DNA of 64,000 nucleotides from an uncultured archaeon (GCA_938045545.1 CALIBN010000007.1:88421-152420), one strand, 5' to 3'. Counted from the first letter of the stretch, positions 1,504-14,325 are shown. Translations and numbers: made by a program. Notes: generated by a model from the letters alone, not told the origin.

Positions 1504-2766
1504 ATGCTAGTTAAGATACCTTTCGGAAAGGGCTTTGAAGAGTGTGAGATTGAGGATTCCAGGATCCATGCTCATCTCGAGCCATCTTGGCCCACGCCTG
1601 GTAACCCTGATTTTTTCATTGAAAACGCTTTATCGAATCCGATAGGGTCTAAAAGCCTTGATGAGCTTGCCGAGAGTGCGGGCAGGATACTAATTATTAC
1701 TAGTGATAACACTAGGCCCGTCCCGAGTAAAACTACTCTTCCAAGGCTTATCTCAAAAATGAAGAAGGCGTCGCCACAGGCTTCTATACGGCTGCTAGTG
1801 GCTACCGGGCTACACGAATGGTCTCCCAGTGGAAGCGAGTTGAAAGAGAAGTTCGGTCAGGCGCTGGACTATTTAGATGAGTTTGTTATTCACTCGGCTA
1901 AAAACGTTGGTTCGCTGGTTAACCTCGGCTCGTTGTCAACCGGCAACAGGCTTTACGTAAACACTCTTTTAAAAGAGGCCGACCTAGTGGTTTCTGAGGG
2001 ATATATTGAGGGCCACTTCTTCGCAGGCTTCACCGGGGGGCCGAAGAGTGTTCTCCCCGGCGTTTCAGGGGTTGAGACCATAATGAACAATCACTCTCCG
2101 AGAAACATTGATCATCCGAACGCCAGGTGCGGTGTTGCTGAGGGAAACCCTATATACGAGGAGATGCTGGAGGCAGCAAACATGGCAAGACTCCGCTTCA
2201 TTCTGAACGTCGTGTTAGACGGTAGGAAGCGGATGCTTTCAGCCTTCGCAGGAGACCCGATTGAAGCGCATAGAAGTGGCCGTGTCTTCACTTTAAAATA
2301 CTGCGGTGTGAAGCCAGTCCCAGGGGATATAGTAATAACTTCAAACGGCGGTTATCCTCTAGACCGAAACCTCTACCAGCTTGTTAAAGGTATTTCAAAC
2401 GGTGCCCTGACGGCTAGGGAGGACGGTGTAATCGTGGCGTGCGGCGAATGCGTAGACGGGGTTGGGCACCAAGGGTTCTACGAGATGCTTGCCTCCTCAA
2501 GCAGCCCAGGCGAGTTTCTAAGGAGACTTAGGTCTGGAGAAATATGGAGGGAGGCGCAATGGGAGGCCCAGGTTTTGGCGAGAGTCTTAGAGAAGTTTCG
2601 CGTGATAGTTGTCTCAAGAGGCGTGGATTCGAAAACAGTTGAATCCATGCATATGATGCATGCGAAAAGCCTGAAGGAGGGTTTGGAAATCGCTCTTAGC
2701 CTCAAGCCTCTGGGGAGGATAACTCTTCTCCCCGACGGCCCTTCCACAATACCTCTTCCACAATAA
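1504..2766 (+). CDS. larA: Nickel-pincer (NPN)-dependent lactate racemase / alpha-hydroxyacid epimerase, LarA family
   Basis: SDNTRP, ATGLH, HFFAGFTGGPKS, NNH, GGYPLDRNLYQLVKG: the LarA catalytic and cofactor-binding motifs are all present. Confidence 0.9.
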   Translation: MLVKIPFGKGFEECEIEDSRIHAHLEPSWPTPGNPDFFIENALSNPIGSKSLDELAESAGRILIITSDNTRPVPSKTTLPRLISKMKKASPQASIRLLVATGLHEWSPSGSELKEKFGQALDYLDEFVIHSAKNVGSLVNLGSLSTGNRLYVNTLLKEADLVVSEGYIEGHFFAGFTGGPKSVLPGVSGVETIMNNHSPRNIDHPNARCGVAEGNPIYEEMLEAANMARLRFILNVVLDGRKRMLSAFAGDPIEAHRSGRVFTLKYCGVKPVPGDIVITSNGGYPLDRNLYQLVKGISNGALTAREDGVIVACGECVDGVGHQGFYEMLASSSSPGEFLRRLRSGEIWREAQWEAQVLARVLEKFRVIVVSRGVDSKTVESMHMMHAKSLKEGLEIALSLKPLGRITLLPDGPSTIPLPQ

Positions 2767-2807: not shown

Positions 2808-3431
2808 TTACCATCTGGTGAATTCAACCGTCTTATCTCTCTTAGGCGGGATGCCGGATGTGTGCACAAGATACCGGATCTGTGAGGAAGCCTCGATCAT
2901 ACAGGTGACGTGGTAAGCCTCTTCCAGGAGCTTAGCCGCGGCGAATGTTCCGTGACCCCTCACCACAACCCCCTTATAGTGTTTAAGCGCCTCCGAAACC
3001 TTTTCCTCAAGCTCCTTGGAGCCGCTCACTTCTTTAACAACAAGCACAGGTACTTTTCTAAGCACGTAGTCTCCCTCGGCATCCATCGGAATTATCTCGT
3101 CGAAAATCAGTGAGCAGACTATCGAGTAGGGTGGGTGAGCATGTACAACGGCCAGTGCTGAAGTATTAAGATATATGGCCCTGTGAACCATGGTTTCAGA
3201 AGAGCTTAATAGTATGGAACTATCCTCCTCGAAAAGGTCTACTTCAACAATGTCCTCAGGCCCTATCTCGTCGGCAGCCGCACCCCTCCTTTTAATATAC
3301 ATCTTATCGCCAACCCTAACGCTTATGTTTCCGCTATGGCTAACCATGTAGCCTTTGTCGAAAAGCTTCTTGCCATACTTGCTTATCTCCTTCCAAACCT
3401 CGCTTACACCACTAATGTTCAATTCTCTCAA
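2808..3431 (-). CDS. Class II aldolase/adducin family (L-fuculose-1-phosphate aldolase-like)
   Basis: SGNISVR, SSETMVHRAIY, VVHAHPPY, RGHGTFA Zn-binding motifs. Confidence 0.88.
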   Translation of the reverse strand: MRELNISGVSEVWKEISKYGKKLFDKGYMVSHSGNISVRVGDKMYIKRRGAAADEIGPEDIVEVDLFEEDSSILLSSSETMVHRAIYLNTSALAVVHAHPPYSIVCSLIFDEIIPMDAEGDYVLRKVPVLVVKEVSGSKELEEKVSEALKHYKGVVVRGHGTFAAAKLLEEAYHVTCMIEASSQIRYLVHTSGIPPKRDKTVEFTRW

Positions 3432-3529
3432 TTTTCCTTCTCATTAAAAGTAATATTTAAAGACTCTGGGCGTTATTACGCAACTCTTTCCCCATCTTGT
3501 TTGCAATAATCTGCCTGAGCTAGTCTTAC

Positions 3530-3780
3530 TCCTCCTCGATAAAGATGAGGAGTTCGCTATGCTGGGAGACTAGGGTTATCTGAAATCTTAAAGAGGCTTG
3601 ATAGGCTTGAAAAACTAGGTTAGGCCGTGGGAGGATCAGAATAAGCTTTGGGAAGAGGTTAGGAGCATAAGGAGCGAGATCCGATACATGAGAGCCGAGT
3701 TAAGAGCTTCGGAAGAGCTGTTGGAAGGACTTTACAACGGCATTCGTGGAAATCATCCTGGAAGAGAGGGTTACGCTAGG
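3530..3780 (+). pseudogene. Relic of an archaeal heptad-repeat coiled-coil / PD-(D/E)XK (DUF3782-type) gene
   Basis: Across frameshifts it reads LLDKDEEF / YAGRLGLSEILKRLDRLE / WEDQNKLWEEVRSIRSEIR, matching the typical N-terminus and heptads of this family as I recall it. Confidence 0.55.
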
Positions 3781-3998
3781 GCGCGCTCCAATAATCTTCA
3801 AACAGCACCAACTAAAGGTTTACACTCCCCAACTCCCATGGATTTAAGCATAGCTATTTTTTAATTTTTTAATTCACATAAAGAATCGTATACGTTGCAT
3901 TGGAAGCTCATTCATTTTTTTAAAAGAAGCTATCACCTCAGCTTCTGGAAGCAAGCTTGTTGCCCCTGTAAGCATGATTTCCAGTTTAACCCTTCTGT

Positions 3999-5777
3999 CT
4001 AACCATCCAAGTCCAATTTCTCAATTGTTCTCCTAGTTGGGCGCCCCTCATTATCCCATCCTCTTGCCCTATAATACTCGTTAAGCATTAGGTCGAGCTC
4101 AACAACCTGCCCCTTTGTTGGTCCATCAGCCAATGGCTCGCTTAGAAGCCTCTTAGGAAGAGTATCATCCCTCCTGCTAAACCCCTCTCTTATGTTGAAA
4201 AGCCTCTCGAGGTTCCATATTCTCTCGCCTACGAGCATGAGGTCTTCAGCCGTATACTTTACGCCGGTTGCAGCTGAAAGCATCCTTGAGTAGTATTCTT
4301 CGTCAAGCCCGTATCCTGTGAACCTGCATGCTACGAGCGTATCCATGGCTGCGTAAAGGTTCTGCTGGTATATCACTAGGCCGGCCTTGTTGACCGTCGA
4401 AAACCTGTCTATCCTCTTCGGAACCCCAAGTATTTCCAAGCCTATCATATACGACCTTAGGTGGCAGCCTCCCCTGTTGCTTGTGGCGTATGCTAGCCCC
4501 TGCCCCTTCGCTCCCCGGGGGTCGTAGGCGGGCAGCTCCAAGCCTTTAACATGCATGGCTGCATCTGGATCCCCGTATTTCTCAGCGAGCCTACGCGAGC
4601 CCTCTGCAAGATCGTTTCCGAAGCCCTTCCTGTAAGCGGTTTCCTCAATCAGCTCCATGATTTTATCCCCGTCGCCCCACTTTACTTCCTCAGGCGTCAA
4701 ACCCTTCTCGCTAAGCTCCATCGCGCAGGCTATCGTAACGCCTGTTGAAATAGTGTCCAGCCCAAGGTCGTTGCACAAATTGTTTGCCCTCCAAATCGTC
4801 TCAAGGTCCCAAAGCAGGCAGCAGGAGCCAAGTGAGAAGACTGTCTCATACTCCGGCCCCTCGCCCTCAGCACTGTCTAGACGAGTCCTCCTGCCGCACG
4901 AGATCCCGCATCCGAAGCATGCCTTAGGTTTAACAAGCAGCCTCCTGGTTATCTCCTCTCCAGCAATATTCCTTGCCTCAGGCACGAAAGTTGCCTGGAA
5001 GTTTTTAGCCGGCAGCACGCCAAGCTCGTTCATAAGATTTACTAAAACAGCCGTCCCAAACCTGGGTAGGGCTTTACTCGTAATAGGGTTCTGGCCGAAA
5101 ACCCTGTTGCATTCTCTGACTACGAAGAGAAAATTCTCCTTGTCGGCGATTTCAACTGTCTTGCTTCCTTTTGCGACGATTGCTTTCAGCTTCTTCGAAC
5201 CCATTACTGCGCCGACCCCGCCTCTCGCAGCAGCCCTGTAGTAGTCGTTCATTATTCCCGCTATTCTCACAAGGTTTTCCCCCGCAGGGCCTATGCACGC
5301 TACCCTGGCTTCCTTCCCGAACTTTTCAGTCAACATGCTCGTGGCTTCAAACACTCTCATACCCCAGTATTTTTCACCGTCTAGAACCTGAATATCCTTA
5401 TCATCCATGTATATTATCACCGGGTTTTGAGCTGCTCCCCGGATTACGAGCACATCGATGCCGCATGCTTTGAACCTGGTTGCGAAAAATCCTCCCGAGT
5501 TTGCGTCGAATATCGTGCCTGTCAACGGGGATTTGGTTGACACGGAGAACCTGCCTGAAGTCGGCGCAGCCGTTGCCGTAAGCGGGCCGACTGCGAAAAC
5601 CAGCACGTTATTCTTGCTTAAAGGGTCAACTTCAGGGCCAACGTTGTCGTAGACGATTTTAGCTCCTATTCCTCTTCCACCGATAAACCTGAGCTTCTCA
5701 TCCTCATTCCACGTGCGAAAAGTTATCTTTGAACTAGACAGGTCTACCTCGGCGATTGATCCCATCCAGCCTGCCAT
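3999..5777 (-). CDS. aor: Aldehyde:ferredoxin oxidoreductase (W/Mo-pterin AOR family)
   Basis: KSPLTG, IGPAGENLV, RGGVGAVMGSKKLKA, CFGCGISC, GPEYET, GLDTISTG, YATSNRGGCHL. Confidence 0.95.
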   Translation of the reverse strand: MAGWMGSIAEVDLSSSKITFRTWNEDEKLRFIGGRGIGAKIVYDNVGPEVDPLSKNNVLVFAVGPLTATAAPTSGRFSVSTKSPLTGTIFDANSGGFFATRFKACGIDVLVIRGAAQNPVIIYMDDKDIQVLDGEKYWGMRVFEATSMLTEKFGKEARVACIGPAGENLVRIAGIMNDYYRAAARGGVGAVMGSKKLKAIVAKGSKTVEIADKENFLFVVRECNRVFGQNPITSKALPRFGTAVLVNLMNELGVLPAKNFQATFVPEARNIAGEEITRRLLVKPKACFGCGISCGRRTRLDSAEGEGPEYETVFSLGSCCLLWDLETIWRANNLCNDLGLDTISTGVTIACAMELSEKGLTPEEVKWGDGDKIMELIEETAYRKGFGNDLAEGSRRLAEKYGDPDAAMHVKGLELPAYDPRGAKGQGLAYATSNRGGCHLRSYMIGLEILGVPKRIDRFSTVNKAGLVIYQQNLYAAMDTLVACRFTGYGLDEEYYSRMLSAATGVKYTAEDLMLVGERIWNLERLFNIREGFSRRDDTLPKRLLSEPLADGPTKGQVVELDLMLNEYYRARGWDNEGRPTRRTIEKLDLDG

Positions 5778-5874: not shown

Positions 5875-6117
5875 ATGAAGATTCTGGTTAAGTATTTCGC
5901 CTCCTACAGGGAGGCTGTGGGAAAATACGAGGAGGAACTGGAGCTTACACCCGGCTCAACCGTTAAGGAGGTTCTCGAAGAGATAGTTTCGAAGCATCCT
6001 GGAGTTGAGGTTGATAAGGAGGCAATAATTGTCTTAAACCAGAAGATAGTTAGGGATAATCCGGAAGTTAAAGATGGCGATGTTCTGGCAATTTTCCCGC
6101 AGCTGGGTGGCGGGTGA
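5875..6117 (+). CDS. moaD: MoaD/ThiS/SAMP-family sulfur carrier
   Basis: 80 aa beta-grasp protein, VKYFASYRE...DGDVLAIFPQLGGG with C-terminal diglycine; divergent from aor. Confidence 0.85.
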   Translation: MKILVKYFASYREAVGKYEEELELTPGSTVKEVLEEIVSKHPGVEVDKEAIIVLNQKIVRDNPEVKDGDVLAIFPQLGGG

Positions 6118-6210: not shown

Positions 6211-6996
6211 ATGAAGTTCTCAGTCCAAGAGAATCTTGTTCCCGGTGCTAATTTAGAGGAGAAGCTTAGGAAGCTTGAAAACTATGGTTATGACGGTATT
6301 GAGCTTTGGGGGAGACAGGAGCTCGGCGGGGTTCTAAAGAATGTTTTGGATGCGTTATCCACCACTAGCGTTAAGGTGAGCACTATTTGTTCAGGATACT
6401 CGGGAAGCCTGCTTTCTCCAAGAAGAGAAGACAGGGAGGCGGCATTAAAAGGGATAAAGGAGAGGCTCGAGTGGGCTAATAGGCTTGGTGCGGTAGGGGT
6501 TATAACGGTACCGGTCTTTGGGGAGGCAACTGTTCCAGACCTTTCTCCTCTTTTCAAAGACAAGTTTGAACTGGAGTGGAAGCTGGCTGTAGAAGAATAC
6601 AGGATTCTTGGGAGGCATGCGAGGGATGTTGGAAGCATAGTGATTGTGGAGCCGCTTAACAGGTATGAGACTCACTTCCTCAAGACGCTTTCTCAAGCCG
6701 CCTCGCTCTGTGAAGAAGTCGGCTTAGACGAGGTGAGAATAATGGCTGACTATTTCCACATGAGTATTGAGGAGGTTGACATCGGGTCAAGCCTGAGGAA
6801 ACATCTTGAAAAGATTGTTCACGTGCACCTTGCTGACAGCAACAGGTTGACGCCAGGAAGAGGACATACTGATTTCAGTTCTTTGAGGATTCTGAGAGAA
6901 GGAGGCTATAAGCATTATCTTACCTTGGAGTGCGGCGTACCCGGCGAGCCTGATGAGGAGTTGAGAAGAACGCTAAGCTTCCTTAAATCATTCTGA
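6211..6996 (+). CDS. Sugar phosphate isomerase/epimerase (xylose-isomerase-like TIM barrel)
   Basis: EPLNRYE, DYFHM, HVHLADSNRLTPGRGH, LTLEC metal ligands. Confidence 0.9.
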   Translation: MKFSVQENLVPGANLEEKLRKLENYGYDGIELWGRQELGGVLKNVLDALSTTSVKVSTICSGYSGSLLSPRREDREAALKGIKERLEWANRLGAVGVITVPVFGEATVPDLSPLFKDKFELEWKLAVEEYRILGRHARDVGSIVIVEPLNRYETHFLKTLSQAASLCEEVGLDEVRIMADYFHMSIEEVDIGSSLRKHLEKIVHVHLADSNRLTPGRGHTDFSSLRILREGGYKHYLTLECGVPGEPDEELRRTLSFLKSF

Positions 6997-7029
6997 TAAA
7001 GTAATCCGGGTTAAGAGGTAAGACAAGAG

Positions 7030-8061
7030 TTGAAGCCTGTTGATCGCGTGCTCACTACGCTTAATCATGAGGAGCCCGACATGGTTCCCTGCCTCTGGGC
7101 TGTTGCAGACGGCCTCAAACAGCTTCAAGAAGCTTTCAGGGCCAGAGAAATGCCCCAGGATCTTGTGGGCGTAGGAAGCATTCCGGAGACAAGGGTTTTA
7201 GAGCAGGGTTCTGAACACAGGCTTTTAGAATCCGTTTTCGGAGACGTGCATCGCGTCTCTTACAAAGTGTATTATGGTTACAGGGAGTTAGTTAAGCCAG
7301 CCGTCTCAAAGCCGGAGGATCTTAATAGGCTTGAAGAACTACGGTTCGAATTATCTAGAGAAAATGTTAAGAGGATCAGGGTGAATGTTGAGAAAAACAG
7401 TGATCGCTTCACCTTCATAAGTCACGAGAGCCCTTTCGGCTTAGCAGCATACTCCTTAAGGGGTTTCAAACAGTTTCTAACAGACATAGTTGTTAACCCG
7501 GGTTTCGCCAAAAAGATTCTCAGTTTCGGAGTTAAGGTGCTTATGGAAATGTCAAGGCAAATAATAGAGGAAACAGGTGTTAATGCTGTCTGGCTTTCAG
7601 GCGACCTGGGTGATCGCAACGGCCCATTCGTGTCGCCAAACCTCTACAGGGAAATTCTAGAGCCATTTGACCGTGAGCTTTGCAGGATCTACCATAAGCT
7701 GGGGACCTATGTTTTCATCCACAGTCATGGTAATCTGAACCTTATTCTTGACAGGCTGGTTGACGCGGGGTTTGACGGCTTAAACCCTTTGGATGAGGCT
7801 GAAAACATGGTTCTCGCTTCTGTGAAGGAGAAATACGGGAGCAAGGTGACCCTAATACCTCAGCCGTCTACCTATAAATTGGAGAAGATGCCTAGAAGCC
7901 TGATAGAGAAATATGTTGCAAACCAGCTTCACGCCGGGGCTCATGGCGGAGGTTTCATATACTACGGTGTAATAGTTAACATGCCTCTTGAAAACGCTGA
8001 GGAATACGTTAAGGCTTTTTTAAAATTGAGGAGTTACCCGTTGCGGTGCTGCAGGAGGTGA
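7030..8061 (+). CDS. URO-D/MtaA (CIMS-like) superfamily protein
   Basis: RVLTTLNHEEPDMVP N-terminus, GDLGDRNGPFVSP, HSHGN, GFDGLNPL, GGGFI. Confidence 0.8.
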   Translation: MKPVDRVLTTLNHEEPDMVPCLWAVADGLKQLQEAFRAREMPQDLVGVGSIPETRVLEQGSEHRLLESVFGDVHRVSYKVYYGYRELVKPAVSKPEDLNRLEELRFELSRENVKRIRVNVEKNSDRFTFISHESPFGLAAYSLRGFKQFLTDIVVNPGFAKKILSFGVKVLMEMSRQIIEETGVNAVWLSGDLGDRNGPFVSPNLYREILEPFDRELCRIYHKLGTYVFIHSHGNLNLILDRLVDAGFDGLNPLDEAENMVLASVKEKYGSKVTLIPQPSTYKLEKMPRSLIEKYVANQLHAGAHGGGFIYYGVIVNMPLENAEEYVKAFLKLRSYPLRCCRR

Positions 8062-8162
8062 GTTGCTGTATATTGTCGTCGGTTAACGGCTCAGCCTCTG
8101 CTTTACGCATTTCTAAGCAAAAGGCTTAAAAGATTATCGTGGATTTTTGAAACGATGTCTTC

Positions 8163-8741
8163 ATGAGCATGATTGAGAAAACCATAGTCTACTTTAGCAC
8201 GCCTGGGAGGATCAATACTGAGACTGTTCTAGTTTTAGCGAGAAAGAGGGCTGAGGAGCTCGGCATAAGAAGCATCGTCGTCGCGTCTACAACGGGCGAA
8301 ACTGGAGTTAAGGCCTCGCAGCTGTTTAAGGGCTTCAACCTGGTTGTCGTAACCCATCATACGGGCTTCAAAGAGCTTGGGCAACAGGAGTTGACTGAGG
8401 AGAACCGTAGAATAATAGAGGCAAACGGCGCTAAGGTTTACACCGGGACGCATGTCTTCATGAATGTTGAGAGGGCGATAAGAAGCAAGTTTAACACCGC
8501 TTACCCTGCTGAGATAATGGCTCAGACCCTTAGGCTTTTCTGCGAGGGCATGAAGGTGGCTGTCGAGATCGCAGCAATGGCTGCTGACGCTGGCCTAATA
8601 CCTGTGGACAGGGATGTGGTGAGCATAGCTGGAACCGGTAGGGGTGCTGACACCGCTATAGTTGTCCAGCCTGCTAACTCTTCTAGGATATTCGACATGA
8701 TTATTAAAGAGATCATAGCTAAGCCTCTGAGCAAGGCATGA
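8163..8741 (+). CDS. Pyruvate-kinase C-terminal-like protein (MTH1675/COG1751 type)
   Basis: PGRINTE, VVASTTGETG, VVTHHTGF, GMKVAVEIAAMAADAG, GTGRGADTA. Confidence 0.85.
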   Translation: MSMIEKTIVYFSTPGRINTETVLVLARKRAEELGIRSIVVASTTGETGVKASQLFKGFNLVVVTHHTGFKELGQQELTEENRRIIEANGAKVYTGTHVFMNVERAIRSKFNTAYPAEIMAQTLRLFCEGMKVAVEIAAMAADAGLIPVDRDVVSIAGTGRGADTAIVVQPANSSRIFDMIIKEIIAKPLSKA

Positions 8742-8756
8742 GGAGTAAAAAGGCGG

Positions 8757-9590
8757 ATGGTTGAACATGGCTTTGCTGAAGCCTGTGATAAAAAAGAATT
8801 TGGAGGGCGTAGCGCCTTGTTCAGCCAGGTAGGGAAAGGGCTTAGGTTAAGCAGGATTTTCTCTAAAGACGGGAAAACGCTGATCATCGGTCTTGACTCT
8901 ACTTTCGCAGGCGGACAGGTTGAAAACCTGTGGAGAACGCGAAGCATCCTGACAAGCGTTTTAAAGTCTAATCCGGATGCCGTCATCCTTAGCAAGGGAC
9001 AGGTCACCGGGCTGGAAAGCCTGATCGGAGGCAGAGGGCCCTCTGTTATAATAAGGTCTGATTTCACGAATGCTGCGGTGGGCTATTCGACACTGCCCCG
9101 TAAAAAACTCGAGCATGTTAAACTAGTTAACCCTAGAGAGGCTTTGACATTGGGTGTTGAAGGTGTTGCCGCTTATCTTCTCGTCGGGGATGAGGATGAG
9201 GAGGCTAGAAGTATTAGAATTGTTTCAACACTCGTCTCGGGCTGCCGAAAGCTGGGGCTTCCACTCCTCGTGGAGACAATAGCATTAGGTGAGCGTGTCA
9301 CTCAGGCTAACCGCCTAGACTGTTTAAAGCTTGCCGTCAGGATGGCTATTGAAGCGGGTGCCGACCTGGTTGCAGCACCATATGTTGGAGACGAGAAGTC
9401 TATGCGCTCCATAGTCGAGGTGTCTGGTCAAACCCCGGTTGTCGCAGTTGACGATGCTGGGACTCCTCTATCAGAGCTTAGGAACGCTCTCTCAGCAGGA
9501 TGCCTAGGCCTTCTTTTAAGGGAGAGACTGGCCTCGGGCGACGTTGAGGAGACTGTTGCGGAAGCCAGGCTTCTAGTCCACGGGTGTTAA
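8757..9590 (+). CDS. DhnA/class Ia aldolase homolog lacking the Schiff-base lysine (probable pseudo-enzyme); likely start TTG 8817
   Basis: GKGLRLSRIF N-terminus; colinear with the downstream paralog. GADLVAAPY replaces GADALKVPY, and the DHG, LGG and GRN motifs are lost. GGAGG precedes TTG 8817. Confidence 0.75.
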   Translation: MVEHGFAEACDKKEFGGRSALFSQVGKGLRLSRIFSKDGKTLIIGLDSTFAGGQVENLWRTRSILTSVLKSNPDAVILSKGQVTGLESLIGGRGPSVIIRSDFTNAAVGYSTLPRKKLEHVKLVNPREALTLGVEGVAAYLLVGDEDEEARSIRIVSTLVSGCRKLGLPLLVETIALGERVTQANRLDCLKLAVRMAIEAGADLVAAPYVGDEKSMRSIVEVSGQTPVVAVDDAGTPLSELRNALSAGCLGLLLRERLASGDVEETVAEARLLVHGC

Positions 9591-10828
9591 GAATGCAGAT
9601 CGGCAAGAGGCTTAGGCTGAAAAGAATATTTGGCGAAGACGGGAGAGCCGTGGTCGTCGCCGCTGACCATGGGCTTATGCTTGGACCAATAAGGGGCGTT
9701 GTCAACCTGAGGGAAACACTTACCAGGGTTATTCAAGGGGGTCCAGACGCCATTCTTCTAACCCCTGGGCAAGCATCCAGTCTAATAGACCTTTTCTACG
9801 GAAAGGATGCCCCTGCACTCTTGGTAAGAGCCGATTGGACGAACGCGTTCAGGGACAAGACCTACACTCTCCCGGCCAGAGTCATACGCGACGTAGACAC
9901 AGTGAGGGTGGAGGATGCTTTAGCCCTAGGAGCCACCGGAATAGTAGTATACCTTTTCATGGGTTTGGGCGACGAAGACGAGGAGGCTAGAAACATTGAA
10001 ATGGTATCGGTGTTTTCACGCGAATGCGAGAAACAAGGCATGCCCCTCATAGTTGAGCCCCTCCCAATGGGTGAACGGGTAACGAAGGCGAACTACGTCG
10101 ACCTCGTAGCTCTTTCAGTGAAGATCGCCGCTGAGCTTGGTGCGGATGCGCTTAAAGTCCCATACACAGGCGACCCGTACACTTTTGAAAAGGTTGTTAA
10201 AACTGCCGGTGGAATACCGGTGCTAGCCTTAGGTGGCTACAGTGGAGTCACCGTAAGAGACTCGCTGGAGGTTGTTGAAGAGGTCATGCAGGCGGGTGGT
10301 TCCGGAATCGTCTACGGAAGGAACATAGTGCAGGCCCAAGATCCCGGGGAGATGGTAAGGCTCGTAAGGAGCATAGTGCACGAGGGTAGGAGCGCCTTGG
10401 AGGTGGTTGGAGCCGCCAAGAAGGGGAGGATTTCCCTCAGGGTTGAGCCAGCCCTCTGCGTCGGCTGCAGCCTGTGTGCCGCTGTCTGCAGCCTCTACCA
10501 TGATGGGAGCATAGATATTGGGCGTGCTAGGCTCAGAGTTTTACAGGAGTGGCCAAGCGGAGCCAAGCCGGTTGTATGTGTTCAATGCGGGAAATGCATA
10601 TCCGTCTGTCCAACTGGAGCCTTAAAATGGGGCTCGAAAGGTAATGTTGAGCTTGAGGAGAAGCTTTGCACATCCTGCATGGCTTGCGTGGAAACATGCC
10701 CGCAGAAGGTCATCGTGTTCGACGAGAAGAGGAATATTCCTCTGTTTTGCGACCTTTGCGGCGGGGTTCCCCAGTGCTCGGAGTGGTGCGGCACAGCAGC
10801 CATAAGGATCGTAGAGGAGGATGCTTAA
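9584..10828 (+). CDS. Class Ia (DhnA-type) aldolase fused to a C-terminal 4x[4Fe-4S] ferredoxin; likely start ATG 9593
   Basis: AADHG, GADALKVPYTG (Schiff-base Lys), LGG, YGRNIVQ; then CVGCSLCAAVC, CVQCGKCISVCP, CTSCMACVETCP, CDLCGGVPQCSEWC. Confidence 0.88.
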   Translation: MLRMQIGKRLRLKRIFGEDGRAVVVAADHGLMLGPIRGVVNLRETLTRVIQGGPDAILLTPGQASSLIDLFYGKDAPALLVRADWTNAFRDKTYTLPARVIRDVDTVRVEDALALGATGIVVYLFMGLGDEDEEARNIEMVSVFSRECEKQGMPLIVEPLPMGERVTKANYVDLVALSVKIAAELGADALKVPYTGDPYTFEKVVKTAGGIPVLALGGYSGVTVRDSLEVVEEVMQAGGSGIVYGRNIVQAQDPGEMVRLVRSIVHEGRSALEVVGAAKKGRISLRVEPALCVGCSLCAAVCSLYHDGSIDIGRARLRVLQEWPSGAKPVVCVQCGKCISVCPTGALKWGSKGNVELEEKLCTSCMACVETCPQKVIVFDEKRNIPLFCDLCGGVPQCSEWCGTAAIRIVEEDA

Positions 10829-12641
10829 AATGAAGGGTGGCTACACGGGCAGGGTTCTAAGCTTCGACCTCTCCTTAGAAAAGGCTAAAGTTGGGGACTT
10901 GAACGAGAAGGAGGCTTTCCTACTGCTCGGTGGAAAGGGTCTTGGAGCCCTTCTCCTCTACAGGAGTCTGCGAGGTAAAGAGGATCCTCTCTCCCCTGAA
11001 AACCCTCTCATAGTTTCAACAGGGCCCTTGACAGGGACGATTGCTCCAACAGGCACTAAGTTCAGTGTTCTAACTAAAAGCCCACAGACAGGTGTTTTCC
11101 TCGATTCAAACTGCGGAGGAATGTTTGGAGTGCAGCTTAAGAGAGCCGGCTACGATATGCTTATTGTCAAAGGGGCTGCTGAAGAACCCTCCATGCTAAT
11201 AGTTGATGAAAACGGTGCTGAGCTTAGGCCCTGCAGGCTATGGGGCGTGACGACGTTTGAAACAATCGCGGAGCTTAAGAAGGAGTTTCCCAACCGCGGC
11301 ATCCTAGTAATCGGGCCCGCGGGTGAAAGGCTTGCTCCAATATCCGGATTGTTGACGGACGACGCGAGGTCTGCAGGCCGTGGCGGCTCTGGTGCAGTAA
11401 TGGGCTCTAAAAGGCTTAAAGCAATAGTAGCGGGAGGCAGGAGACCAATAGAGGTTTATGATGCTGAGGGGATGAAGAGGGCTGCCTGGGTGGTCAGGAG
11501 GATGCTCAGGCTGCATGAGGTTACTGCGAGAAGCCTTCCGAGACACGGGACGGTGAACATAATAGAGGCTGTCAACGAGATGGGGGCTCTCCCAACGAGA
11601 AACTTTCAAAAAGGCAGGTTCGACGGCGCGGGCGAGCTTTCAGGGGAGAAATGGAGGTCCGGTCTTTGGAGGAGGGATAAGGGTTGCTACGGCTGCACTA
11701 TAAGGTGCGGGAAAATCGCTGTTTTAAACGGCTCATGGGTCGACGGGCCGGACTACGAGACCATCTGGGCGTTCGGTCCAAACTGCGGTATCAAAGATAC
11801 TAAAACAATAGCTATGGCTAACTATCTTTGCGACGACTACGGCTTAGACACGATAAGCACCGGCGTCACGATAAGCTTCCTAATGGAGCTCTACGAGAAA
11901 GGCTTCATCCAAGACTTGGACGGGTTGAAGCCCATGTGGGGGGACGAGGATGTCTTTCTCAAGCTTGTGGAGAAAGCGTGTAAGGGCGAGGGGTGTGGAA
12001 GAATGATTGAGCAGGGTGTAGCCAGGGTGAGCGGAAAGTTCCCGGGCAGCGAGGCCTTCGCAATGCACGTGAAAGGATTGGAAATGCCTGCTTACGAGCC
12101 GAGGGCCGCTAAAGGAATGGGTCTTGGCTACGCGACCAGCGACCGGGGGGCGTGCCATCTTAGAGGATACACTGCTGGGCAGGAGCTGCTTGGGTACGGT
12201 GGGGGCGTAGACCCGTACACTATTGAGGGCAAGGCTAGGCTAGTGATAGATAGGCAGGACGAGAAGGCTGTGATAGACTCTTCAGGCCTATGCTTCTTCG
12301 CGTTTTACGCAATAACTCTTAAAGAGCTGCACCGCATGATTGTTGCCTGCACCGGGCTCCCCTATAAAGACTGGTATGAATTAATGAGGATAGGGGAGAG
12401 AATCTACAACTTGACGAGGCTTTTCAACATTAGGGAGGGGTTAACCAGGAAGGATGACACTCTGCCCAGCAGATTCTTAAAGGAACCCATGCCCGAGGGA
12501 CCTGGAAAAGGACAGGTGGTTGAGCTTGAACAGATGCTTTCCGAATACTATAGGCTCAGGGGTTGGAACGAGAAAGGTGAGCCTAAAAAGGAAACTCTTG
12601 ATAGTCTAGGGTTAAACGAGCTTCTTAAGACGAACGAATAG
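10821..12641 (+). CDS. aor: Aldehyde:ferredoxin oxidoreductase (second AOR-family paralog)
   Basis: KSPQTG, IGPAGE, RGGSGAVMGSKRLKA, CYGCTIRC, GPDYET, GLDTISTG, YATSDRGACHL; overlaps the stop of the aldolase-ferredoxin gene. Confidence 0.95.
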   Translation: MLKMKGGYTGRVLSFDLSLEKAKVGDLNEKEAFLLLGGKGLGALLLYRSLRGKEDPLSPENPLIVSTGPLTGTIAPTGTKFSVLTKSPQTGVFLDSNCGGMFGVQLKRAGYDMLIVKGAAEEPSMLIVDENGAELRPCRLWGVTTFETIAELKKEFPNRGILVIGPAGERLAPISGLLTDDARSAGRGGSGAVMGSKRLKAIVAGGRRPIEVYDAEGMKRAAWVVRRMLRLHEVTARSLPRHGTVNIIEAVNEMGALPTRNFQKGRFDGAGELSGEKWRSGLWRRDKGCYGCTIRCGKIAVLNGSWVDGPDYETIWAFGPNCGIKDTKTIAMANYLCDDYGLDTISTGVTISFLMELYEKGFIQDLDGLKPMWGDEDVFLKLVEKACKGEGCGRMIEQGVARVSGKFPGSEAFAMHVKGLEMPAYEPRAAKGMGLGYATSDRGACHLRGYTAGQELLGYGGGVDPYTIEGKARLVIDRQDEKAVIDSSGLCFFAFYAITLKELHRMIVACTGLPYKDWYELMRIGERIYNLTRLFNIREGLTRKDDTLPSRFLKEPMPEGPGKGQVVELEQMLSEYYRLRGWNEKGEPKKETLDSLGLNELLKTNE

Positions 12642-13299: not shown

Positions 13300-14325
13300 T
13301 TAGCACGAAAACAGTTGCCCTGCATTGTTTCGAAACGTATTCCCAATGATGCGTGGATTGTTTTTTACTGCTTTAATCATCGTCTTAACATTCTCTACTG
13401 GAGTTTTCGGATGCAGGGCACAGGCTGGAGCCACTATTCTGATTCCGAGGTTTAGGCATGAGAGCGAGGCTTCAACAATGCTCTTCTCATCACCTTCCAG
13501 CAGTAGAAATGTACTTACTCCTCCTGCTAACGTTACGCCTCGGATCAAGTCTTTCGCAACCCTGAGGTTGGTTTTAGGGTCTACGTGGAAGACTTTAACA
13601 CCTGTCTCAGGTATGTCTTTCAAAATCTTTAAAGTGTCTCCGCATATGTGTAGTATACAGGGGACATTTAACATTGAGGTCAACCGTTTAAGAGGCTCTA
13701 CTTCGACAGTTCTGAAGATCATGGGGTTAAGCACGTCCGGTGATGAAGCCATGTCCTCAATCACGATAGCATCCGCCCCGGCGGAAACAATTTCCATGGC
13801 GTAATTCGCTATGGATGCTGAAAGCTGGTAAGTGTAATCCTTAATGAGATCCGGATCCCTTCTACTTAGCAACATGGTTTTAGCAGGGCCAAGCAGATAG
13901 TTGAGAAGGGTGAAAGGACCCGTGACGCCGCCGAGTATAGGAAAACCCGGTCCAACCGCTTCCCTAAGGTCTCCGATTACGTCTAAAACCATACTCGTCC
14001 TACCTCTCCCCATAAAGTTGAACTCTTTTATCTTCTCCAAGAGTGTCCTTGGTTTAGGGTAATGACCCTCGAAGTCTAGCTCAACGCCGAGGGCTTCGGC
14101 TTCAACACACTGGTCGAAAGGGACCCGTATCGTTTCAAAACCAATTACTTGCTTAGCTGCTAAGGCGGCTTTAACCATGTGTTCACGGCTCCTGTGGACT
14201 GATGGCCATGTTGAGCCGCATATATTGAGTAACTCTTCAGTTAAAGGGCTAGTTATTGCAGTTGCCATCGGTCTCACCATGTTTTCACCGCGCACTAGTG
14301 AGAGGAAGAGGCTTCTCCGATCCAA
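13300..14325 (-). CDS. mtaA: MtaA/CmuA-family methylcobalamin:thiol methyltransferase
   Basis: GFETIRVPFDQCVEAEALG, GGVTGPFTL, intact Zn motif LHICG...APAC. Confidence 0.8.
   Translation of the reverse strand: MDRRSLFLSLVRGENMVRPMATAITSPLTEELLNICGSTWPSVHRSREHMVKAALAAKQVIGFETIRVPFDQCVEAEALGVELDFEGHYPKPRTLLEKIKEFNFMGRGRTSMVLDVIGDLREAVGPGFPILGGVTGPFTLLNYLLGPAKTMLLSRRDPDLIKDYTYQLSASIANYAMEIVSAGADAIVIEDMASSPDVLNPMIFRTVEVEPLKRLTSMLNVPCILHICGDTLKILKDIPETGVKVFHVDPKTNLRVAKDLIRGVTLAGGVSTFLLLEGDEKSIVEASLSCLNLGIRIVAPACALHPKTPVENVKTMIKAVKNNPRIIGNTFRNNAGQLFSC

Follow-up and report, generated by a model that had tools for sequence, protein, structure and literature searches.

We analyzed a 64,000-nucleotide stretch of DNA from an uncultured archaeon (GCA_938045545.1 CALIBN010000007.1:88421-152420; hereafter the window, in whose coordinates positions are given unless another contig or locus is named). 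Three consecutive plus-strand genes of the window encode a dead paralog of DhnA-type aldolases, a fusion of an aldolase with a polyferredoxin resembling WorS, the small subunit of heteromeric tungsten-containing oxidoreductases (WORs), and the catalytic subunit (WorL) of an aldehyde:ferredoxin oxidoreductase (AOR). The features of this gene set are as follows.

8757..9590, plus strand: catalytically dead DhnA-type aldolase paralog (Pfam DeoC, E 3.1e-10)
9584 (GTG) or 9593 (ATG) to 10828, plus strand: open reading frame (ORF) of the aldolase::WorS fusion, 414 or 411 aa
9593..10414, plus strand: aldolase domain of the fusion (residues 1-274), with Asp25, Lys188, LGG and GRN kept
10052-10072, plus strand: 'VEPLPMG' of the fusion, in place of 'VWSYPRG'
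10154-10156, plus strand: Lys188 codon of the fusion
10415..10828, plus strand: short junction of fixed length and putative WorS/AorA-type polyferredoxin domain with four Cys motifs (first Cys codon 10457-10459)
10821..12641, plus strand: AOR sensu stricto-type catalytic subunit, WorL (AFOR_N E 8.5e-64, AFOR_C E 3.7e-137)

A fusion gene within a fixed three-gene unit

An earlier interpretation of the locus, made without database searches (the sequence-only reading), had proposed that a single frame joins a DhnA-type aldolase to a 16-Cys ferredoxin, and the ORF, the Pfam matches and the Cys count all agreed with this. The database copy of the fusion begins at the ATG (9593; 411 aa), and in this protein residues 23-250 matched the DeoC/LacD aldolase family (PF01791, E 2.1e-35), several 4Fe-4S dicluster families matched about residues 290-410, and four Cys motifs with 16 Cys in total were found within the C-terminal 135 residues. 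Comparison of 13 diverse fusions revealed that 15 of the 16 Cys of the ferredoxin domain are invariant. The fusion ends with TAA at 10826-10828, and the AOR gene starts either at the ATG at 10821, giving an 8-nt overlap with the fusion (ATGCTTAA) as the sequence-only reading had it, or at the ATG at 10830, one base past the fusion stop. Since either start overlaps the stop or lies within one base of it, the fusion and AOR genes are tightly coupled. Likewise, the stop of the paralog lies 2 nt ahead of the fusion ATG.

That two genes were fused by an assembly or frameshift error is extremely improbable. Among the best 120 clusters (90% identity) of a large protein collection, 119 combined PF01791 with Fer4 families in proteins of 403-443 aa, the lone exception being a 275-aa protein, and the single frame thus recurs in more than 100 independent clusters. 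Furthermore, the region 10380-10450, where a check for an assembly join had been proposed, was bridged by contigs of runs X1 (8700-11428), X3 (8700-11963; 112 substitutions) and X5 (10270-10737), which come from three different studies, and the sole indels listed in these contigs (8746, 8790 and 12651) all fall outside the fusion. The cluster architecture and the bridging contigs therefore ruled out an assembly join or a frameshift. The junction was also found to be of nearly constant length: 152 fusions were examined, of which 9 failed the pattern and 143 were scored, and in 139 of these 143 the conserved His and the first Cys stood 25-27 residues apart, with 8-26 residues after the last Cys and no long C-terminal tail. 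In some Bathyarchaeia fusions (P0029 and P0081) the second Cys motif is missing ('CLLL...' plus an insertion); these proteins would hold three clusters, not four. Another homologue, P0110, is labelled 'MAG: ... [Mycobacterium leprae]' and looks like a mislabelled metagenome bin.

We then compared the gene order in related loci. The AOR gene lies directly downstream of the fusion in all 17 genome loci with room for it (22 examined; four are cut off by the end of the contig, and L034 has decayed) and downstream of it in all 11 metagenome loci with room (19 examined), so that fusion followed by AOR was found in 28 of 28 related loci with room, in archaea and bacteria alike. The paralog is located directly upstream of the fusion in 18 of the 22 genome loci, after the AOR in L017, and upstream in 19 of 19 metagenome loci. 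Paralog, fusion and AOR are a fixed three-gene unit. According to the records, its hosts are Bathyarchaeia, Hadarchaeota, Sigynarchaeum, Bacteroidota, Ignavibacteriales, Zhuqueibacterota, Chloroflexota and Phycisphaerae, and the unit is present in 10 of the 26 genomes of the window's class. In L034, from a Chloroflexia genome, the aldolase is split over three frames (7001-8546) and no ferredoxin domain or AOR was found, a state that may represent decay or sequencing errors in the assembly.

The oxidoreductase and aldolase components

Among solved structures, the AOR is closest to Pyrococcus furiosus AOR (1aor, 515 bits), followed by 9mqx_D (486 bits), 9g7j and AorB (448 bits), and is far from WOR5-L (239 bits). 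C289, C292, C296 and C491, the [4Fe-4S] ligands, were invariant in 15 of 15 fusion-linked AORs, and so were the second-shell residues T244, E313, Y425 and H446, which map to Thr243, Glu313, Tyr427 and His448 of the P. furiosus enzyme (PfAOR). These four residues constitute the second shell of AOR sensu stricto, whereas the glyceraldehyde-3-phosphate (GAP) oxidoreductase GAPOR keeps the Thr and Glu alone (PMC12096430). The second shell therefore points to a general-aldehyde active site rather than a GAP-specific one. The domains, Cys ligands and second shell are those of AOR sensu stricto, and the metal of the pterin cofactor is presumably tungsten. An enzyme of the GAPOR/GOR kind was rejected, as GAPOR_Arch scored 47.1 bits against a cutoff of 1300 and both the Tyr and the His of the second shell are present. 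In a tree of 72 AORs, from which three rows had been dropped as partial or fused and whose remaining rows came from loci retrieved via WorS similarity and from this genome, the 16 fusion-linked AORs formed one clade (SH-aLRT 100), divided into an archaeal and a bacterial half.

As for the ferredoxin domain, its best full-length match in the PDB was WOR5-S of P. furiosus (6x6u_B, E 1.1e-21, residues 3-126 of 135), and further matches were 9mqx_E, the partner of an AOR (E 4e-18), and AorA of Aromatoleum aromaticum (8c0z_C, E 9.1e-18). These matches support its assignment, already made in the sequence-only reading, to the WorS/AorA-type small subunits of heteromeric tungsten oxidoreductases, as judged from sequence. 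The domain shows the four Cys motifs and the full-length similarity of this type, and it lies adjacent to WorL, to which it is predicted to bind with the clusters facing, in a model only; known members are free-standing proteins of about 17-19 kDa, whereas here the domain is fused to a 274-residue aldolase domain. The multimer modeling that had been suggested placed fusion residues 272-411 on the AOR with a score of 0.89, versus 0.00 for the best of 3 controls, a mark reached by 58 of 80 solved complexes and by 2 of 110 mismatched pairs. The model runs shared at least 96% of contacts with a partner pLDDT (predicted local confidence) of at least 87, and in the modeled interface AOR residues 285-299, containing the cluster Cys motif, touch ferredoxin residues 290-311, containing the first Cys motif. 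The same genome carries five AOR-family genes in total, two of which have free WorS-like neighbors on contigs C17 (64709-66953) and C29 (67123-69244), one pair being ordered AOR-WorS and the other WorS-AOR. These free WorS-like genes lend independent support to the ferredoxin domain being an AOR partner. Together, the docking model, the synteny in 28 of 28 loci and the AOR clade favor the proposal that the fusion tethers the aldolase to AOR.

The closest solved relatives of the aldolase domain are MJ0400, an ADH synthase (see below) of Methanocaldococcus jannaschii (E 5.8e-40, 141 bits), and the fructose 1,6-bisphosphate (FBP) aldolase FBPA of Thermoproteus tenax (E 3e-33, 119 bits), and its predicted fold matched both (2qjg and 1ojx, respectively) with a target-normalized Foldseek TM score of 0.89. 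By fold and by hidden Markov model, the domain belongs to the DhnA/FbaB-type class I Schiff-base aldolase superfamily (PF01791). The catalytic residues of T. tenax FBPA are Tyr146, Asp24 and Lys177, as stated in a paper on Escherichia coli FbaB (PMC4881948). Alignment to the PDB sequences indicated that the equivalents of Asp24 and Lys177 are kept as Asp25 and Lys188. Neither residue varied among the 13 diverse fusions or among the full-length fusions of the loci, all of which retain AADHG, the Lys, LGG and GR[NQ]. The 'VEPLPMG' segment aligns with 'VWSYPRG' of wild-type T. tenax FBPA (1ojx) and with 'AMMYPRG' of MJ0400, as the sequence-only reading had noticed for the W-x-Y-P-R-G motif, and the position of its Trp is an invariant Glu in all fusions examined.

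In addition, the domain stayed below the cutoffs of the NCBIfam models Fbpase1_Arch (165.5 bits, cutoff 430) and ADH_synth (167.3 bits, cutoff 299.45), and below that of its best match, PRK07226, which represents a subfamily of 2-amino-3,7-dideoxy-D-threo-hept-6-ulosonate (ADH) synthase, a transaldol enzyme (204.7 bits, cutoff 241). The true ADH synthase of the genome, which has YPRG, is encoded on contig C10 between asd and the gene of dehydroquinate (DHQ) synthase II. The sub-cutoff scores, the missing Tyr and this separate ADH synthase ruled out a housekeeping FBP aldolase or ADH synthase, and failure of the FBP aldolase tests on score and Tyr is in line with the earlier suggestion of a substrate other than FBP. 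In our view, LGG and GRN are the loops that bind the phosphate of the dihydroxyacetone phosphate (DHAP) half, and loss of the Arg of YPRG presumably means that the second phosphate site is gone. The fused domain thus probably works through a Schiff base and has retained the ability to handle a DHAP-like half, with the aldehyde half altered. It may retain aldolase activity in the absence of the Tyr, with Glu155 as a possible base. More distant stand-alone DhnA aldolases (L035, L036 and L044; 30-32% identity) each lie no more than about 5 kb from a WorS-AOR pair in this small, selected sample, an arrangement that may be a looser form of the association between aldolase and WorS-AOR.

Alignment of the paralog with the fusion revealed that its Schiff-base Lys is replaced by Ala206 ('GADLVA' versus 'GADALK' of the fusion) and that it no longer has the Asp-His, GG and GRN motifs, and every upstream paralog of the related loci shows the same catalytic losses. 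A catalytic set kept in the fusions and lost in the paralogs is the pattern expected of a working active site in the fused copy. The paralog is nonetheless predicted as a confident TIM barrel (pLDDT 84; predicted TM score, pTM, 0.84), and a family-specific 'RxDWTNAxR' loop is kept in both the dead paralogs and the active-looking fused copies. The paralog may be a structural partner of the aldolase domain.

Neighboring genes and substrate hints

In the window, the three-gene unit is part of what looks like a longer sugar operon, and the genes around it are listed below.

1504-2766, plus strand: LarA-type 2-hydroxyacid racemase (455.8 bits versus a lactate racemase cutoff of 460)
2808-3431, minus strand: class II aldolase (NCBIfam PRK08660, 230.9 bits, above the cutoff of 203)
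3999-5777, minus strand: second AOR, without WorS, with the class II aldolase (2808-3431) downstream
5875..6117, plus strand: ThiS/MoaD-like small protein of 80 aa ending in GG ('WorX'-like; Pfam ThiS E 5.8e-18), first gene of the plus-strand row
6211..6996, plus strand: xylose-isomerase-like TIM barrel of the ketose or keto-acid epimerase/isomerase type (AP_endonuc_2 E 2.2e-35)
7030..8061, plus strand: divergent URO-D-fold protein (Pfam URO-D E 1.4e-17)
8163..8741, plus strand: stand-alone protein like the pyruvate kinase C-terminal domain (Pfam PK_C E 1.2e-11)
13300-14325, minus strand: MtaA-like protein
in the window, minus strand: PadR regulator

A ThiS-like WorX occurs beside WOR genes and is seemingly missing from archaeal clusters of the bifurcating class (PMC13328260). 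The best NCBIfam matches of the xylose-isomerase-like barrel were the 5-keto-L-gluconate epimerase IolO (138.9 bits, cutoff 300) and psicose 3-epimerase, neither model reaching its cutoff, and its homologues were found near the module in seven sources (the window and six loci). A homologue of the URO-D-fold protein overlaps the AOR stop in L024 (10111-11118), a distant Chloroflexia locus. The URO-D-like protein of the window reads 'HSHGN' where the MtaA-like neighbor reads 'HICGD', a position that we take to be the zinc-binding H-x-C motif; with this motif replaced, the protein is probably no methyltransferase. The PK_C-like gene is limited to the close relatives L055 and L093. The minus-strand genes at 2808-5777 amount to a second, unfused pairing of aldolase and AOR beside the LarA-type racemase, and a route from a deoxysugar via lactaldehyde to lactate followed by racemization would fit this set.

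In the related loci, the flanking genes comprised a GH38 mannosidase and a PfkB kinase before the trio in L102 (with homologues in L098 and L034), a lyxose-isomerase-like gene and DUF4432 after it in L102 and L098, an FGGY kinase in L015, L107, L033 and L027, and, in loci of the Anaerolineales type, LarA, IolO-like barrels, UPF0261, a creatininase/IolN-like gene and a TauE-family gene; alpha-galactosidase, sulfatase, GHL10 and 3-keto-disaccharide hydrolase genes were found as well. The common theme of sugar breakdown via a ketose and a kinase fits the conversion of a ketose 1-phosphate into DHAP and a non-phosphorylated aldehyde. We infer that such a cleavage is what the aldolase domain would perform, on a substrate that may differ by lineage. 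Sulfosugars, raised as candidates in the sequence-only reading, found some echo in the TauE-family gene, which follows the AOR in five Anaerolineales-type loci; this hint and one sulfatase were too weak and too lineage-limited, and a sulfosugar substrate was set aside.

A proposed aldehyde-making, aldehyde-oxidizing enzyme

We reasoned that the dead paralog, the aldolase::WorS fusion and the AOR/WorL probably encode one heteromeric enzyme that both makes and oxidizes an aldehyde, a proposal to which we attach somewhat better than even confidence. In this scheme, the fused aldolase domain would bind a ketose 1-phosphate other than FBP and form a Schiff base at Lys188, and the substrate would be split into DHAP and a non-phosphorylated aldehyde such as glyceraldehyde, lactaldehyde or glycolaldehyde. 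AOR, kept close via the fused WorS domain, would then oxidize the aldehyde to the acid at its tungstopterin site, and the two electrons would pass from the AOR [4Fe-4S] cluster through the four WorS clusters to soluble ferredoxin, as in class II WORs. The dead paralog would accompany the aldolase domain as its structural partner in a hetero-oligomer. The aldehyde may pass directly from the aldolase to the AOR.

Several observations weigh against the proposal. Whereas the sequence-only reading had called the aldolase active, only the Asp and Lys of its catalytic set stood up, the position of Tyr146 being a Leu here and Leu, Val, Ile or Met in every fusion examined; with the catalytic Tyr missing, ordinary retro-aldol activity is not assured. 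Stand-alone aldolases of the same subfamily also occur (P0126, 281 aa; P0127, 282 aa; P0130, 280 aa; from clustering at 50%). The docking result may reflect memory or likeness rather than binding, since like complexes (WOR5 and AorAB) have been solved, and the complex model comprises the AOR and the ferredoxin part only, with the aldolase barrel outside and no tunnel in evidence. Moreover, the unit was found in 6 of 16 other genomes of the same genus, and such patchiness even within a genus marks it as accessory. Finally, the window's own gene row contains no kinase, and the flanks vary between lineages, so that no single substrate emerges.

Different roles for the same parts were also weighed. 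The barrel and the dead paralog might mainly form an oligomerization platform that groups several WorS-WorL units in a single particle, with any aldolase chemistry lost or unrelated to what the AOR oxidizes. Absence of the catalytic Tyr, retention of the second, clearly dead copy as a confident TIM barrel and conservation of the 'RxDWTNAxR' loop in both kinds of copies would suit such a platform, as would the decameric state of archaeal class I aldolases (PMC4881948) and the need of AorA for a C-terminal helix in filament stacking (PMC12096430), a helix absent here, where the tails have 8-26 residues. However, archaeal and bacterial fusions alike retain the Lys, Asp-His, LGG and GRN without exception, the paralog has lost them, and sugar kinases and isomerases flank the unit, making a pure platform unlikely. 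It is also conceivable that the unit runs in reverse, the AOR reducing a carboxylic acid with reduced ferredoxin and the aldolase condensing the resulting aldehyde with DHAP to a ketose 1-phosphate. AORs do reduce non-activated acids using low-potential donors (PMC9295118), a tethered trapping enzyme would pull the unfavorable, uphill formation of the unstable aldehyde, and this direction calls for no other parts. Nevertheless, glycoside hydrolases, sugar kinases and a sulfatase give the neighborhood a catabolic character and no biosynthetic gene recurs beside the unit in the loci compared, and we regard the reverse direction as quite improbable.

We give a similarly slim chance to another Schiff-base chemistry, in which the domain would act as an LsrF-like thiolase or a transaldolase on a diketo- or keto-phosphate, a reaction for which no Tyr is needed; with as little likelihood, the AOR would then act on a product other than a simple aldol aldehyde. 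LsrF shares the fold family (TM 0.80-0.81) and, by alignment, also lacks a Tyr at the position, and the best NCBIfam match of the domain, as given above, is a transaldol subfamily. Yet MJ0400 and FBPA are much closer to the domain than is LsrF (69 bits), no gene for handling CoA recurs in the loci, and the AOR partner implies an aldehyde or acid intermediate.

For the aldehyde-making, aldehyde-oxidizing enzyme that we prefer, a more elaborate form can be envisaged, although we consider it rather doubtful: the paralog and the fused aldolase might form a ring of the decameric DhnA type (e.g., a dead ring stacked on an active ring) that carries several AORs on the short, fixed junctions, so that the aldehyde would stay in the particle and neighboring WorS domains would share an Fe-S path. 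If true, tungsten enzymes would gain a new architecture class, in which, for the first time, the electron-transfer subunit itself delivers the substrate.

Compared with known systems, the unit resembles class II WORs, which consist of WorL and WorS with ferredoxin as the presumed acceptor (PMC13328260). Like P. furiosus WOR5/ASOR (6x1o, 6x6u) and C. bescii GOR, it combines an AOR-family catalytic subunit with an adjacent gene for a polyferredoxin of four [4Fe-4S] clusters. Unlike the free WorS of class II WORs (about 18 kDa), the polyferredoxin here forms the C-terminal part of a 411-aa aldolase, the dead paralog adds a third fixed gene, and, in contrast to WOR5, the WorL is of the AOR sensu stricto type (515 bits for 1aor versus 239 for WOR5-L). 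Our verdict is that the unit is a class II WOR with its small subunit fused to an aldolase and the dead paralog as third member. AorABC (8c0z) and the WorSL part of the bifurcating WOR1 (9mqx) are also similar, AorB and 9mqx_D being near this AOR and AorA and 9mqx_E near the ferredoxin domain; unlike in AorABC and WOR1, no FAD subunit gene (AorC/WorN) and no WorABC genes were found nearby, and the C-terminal helix that is tied to filament stacking in AorA is absent. With this FAD subunit gene missing and short tails in all 143 scored fusions, a filament like that of AorABC was not supported.

The aldolase domain shares with T. tenax FBPA (1ojx) and MJ0400 (2qjg) the TIM barrel, the Schiff-base Lys, the Asp, LGG and GRN, and differs from both in having E-P-[LVIM]-[PA]-x-G for W-x-Y-P-R-G and an extra 'DWTNAFR' loop. 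Functionally, the unit is analogous to DmpFG/HsaFG, in which an aldolase is bound to an aldehyde-oxidizing enzyme that uses the reactive aldehyde at once, the aldehyde being sequestered in a documented tunnel (PMC12041015). The proteins are nevertheless unrelated, since DmpFG and HsaFG consist of a class II metal aldolase and a CoA-acylating, NAD-dependent dehydrogenase, unfused and with neither Fe-S clusters nor tungsten, and the present unit falls outside that type by protein family. A further parallel is the non-phosphorylative Entner-Doudoroff branch with its KD(P)G aldolase, where aldolase-made glyceraldehyde is oxidized by a ferredoxin-dependent oxidoreductase (PMC2063504), that is, aldol cleavage is likewise followed by ferredoxin-linked oxidation of a non-phosphorylated aldehyde; there, however, the two enzymes are distinct proteins with no link between them, and the aldolase is of another family.

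A literature search found no publication on an aldolase-WorS fusion or a unit with a dead paralog, in keeping with the sequence-only reading, whose author knew of no characterized fusion of an aldolase with an AOR ferredoxin. The word 'aldolase' is absent from the main text of the 2026 WOR classification (PMC13328260), the supplementary tables of which might list such architectures, and neither 'aldolase' nor 'fused' or 'fusion' was found in the accessible text of a 2025 review of tungsten enzymes (PMC12096430).

The 2026 classification assigns a defined role to only five of 92 tungsten oxidoreductase clades (PMC13328260). In the present unit, the aldehyde-making enzyme is covalently joined to the electron-transfer subunit, which narrows the search for the physiological substrate of an entire AOR clade to what a single aldolase releases. 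The paralog is a naturally occurring case of a pseudo-enzyme that has been kept as a constant partner, and the unit may be the ferredoxin-linked counterpart of the NAD-linked channelling complexes of aldolase and dehydrogenase. As it is spread over uncultured, anaerobic, sugar-degrading archaea and bacteria, the unit bears on how such organisms gain low-potential electrons from carbohydrates.

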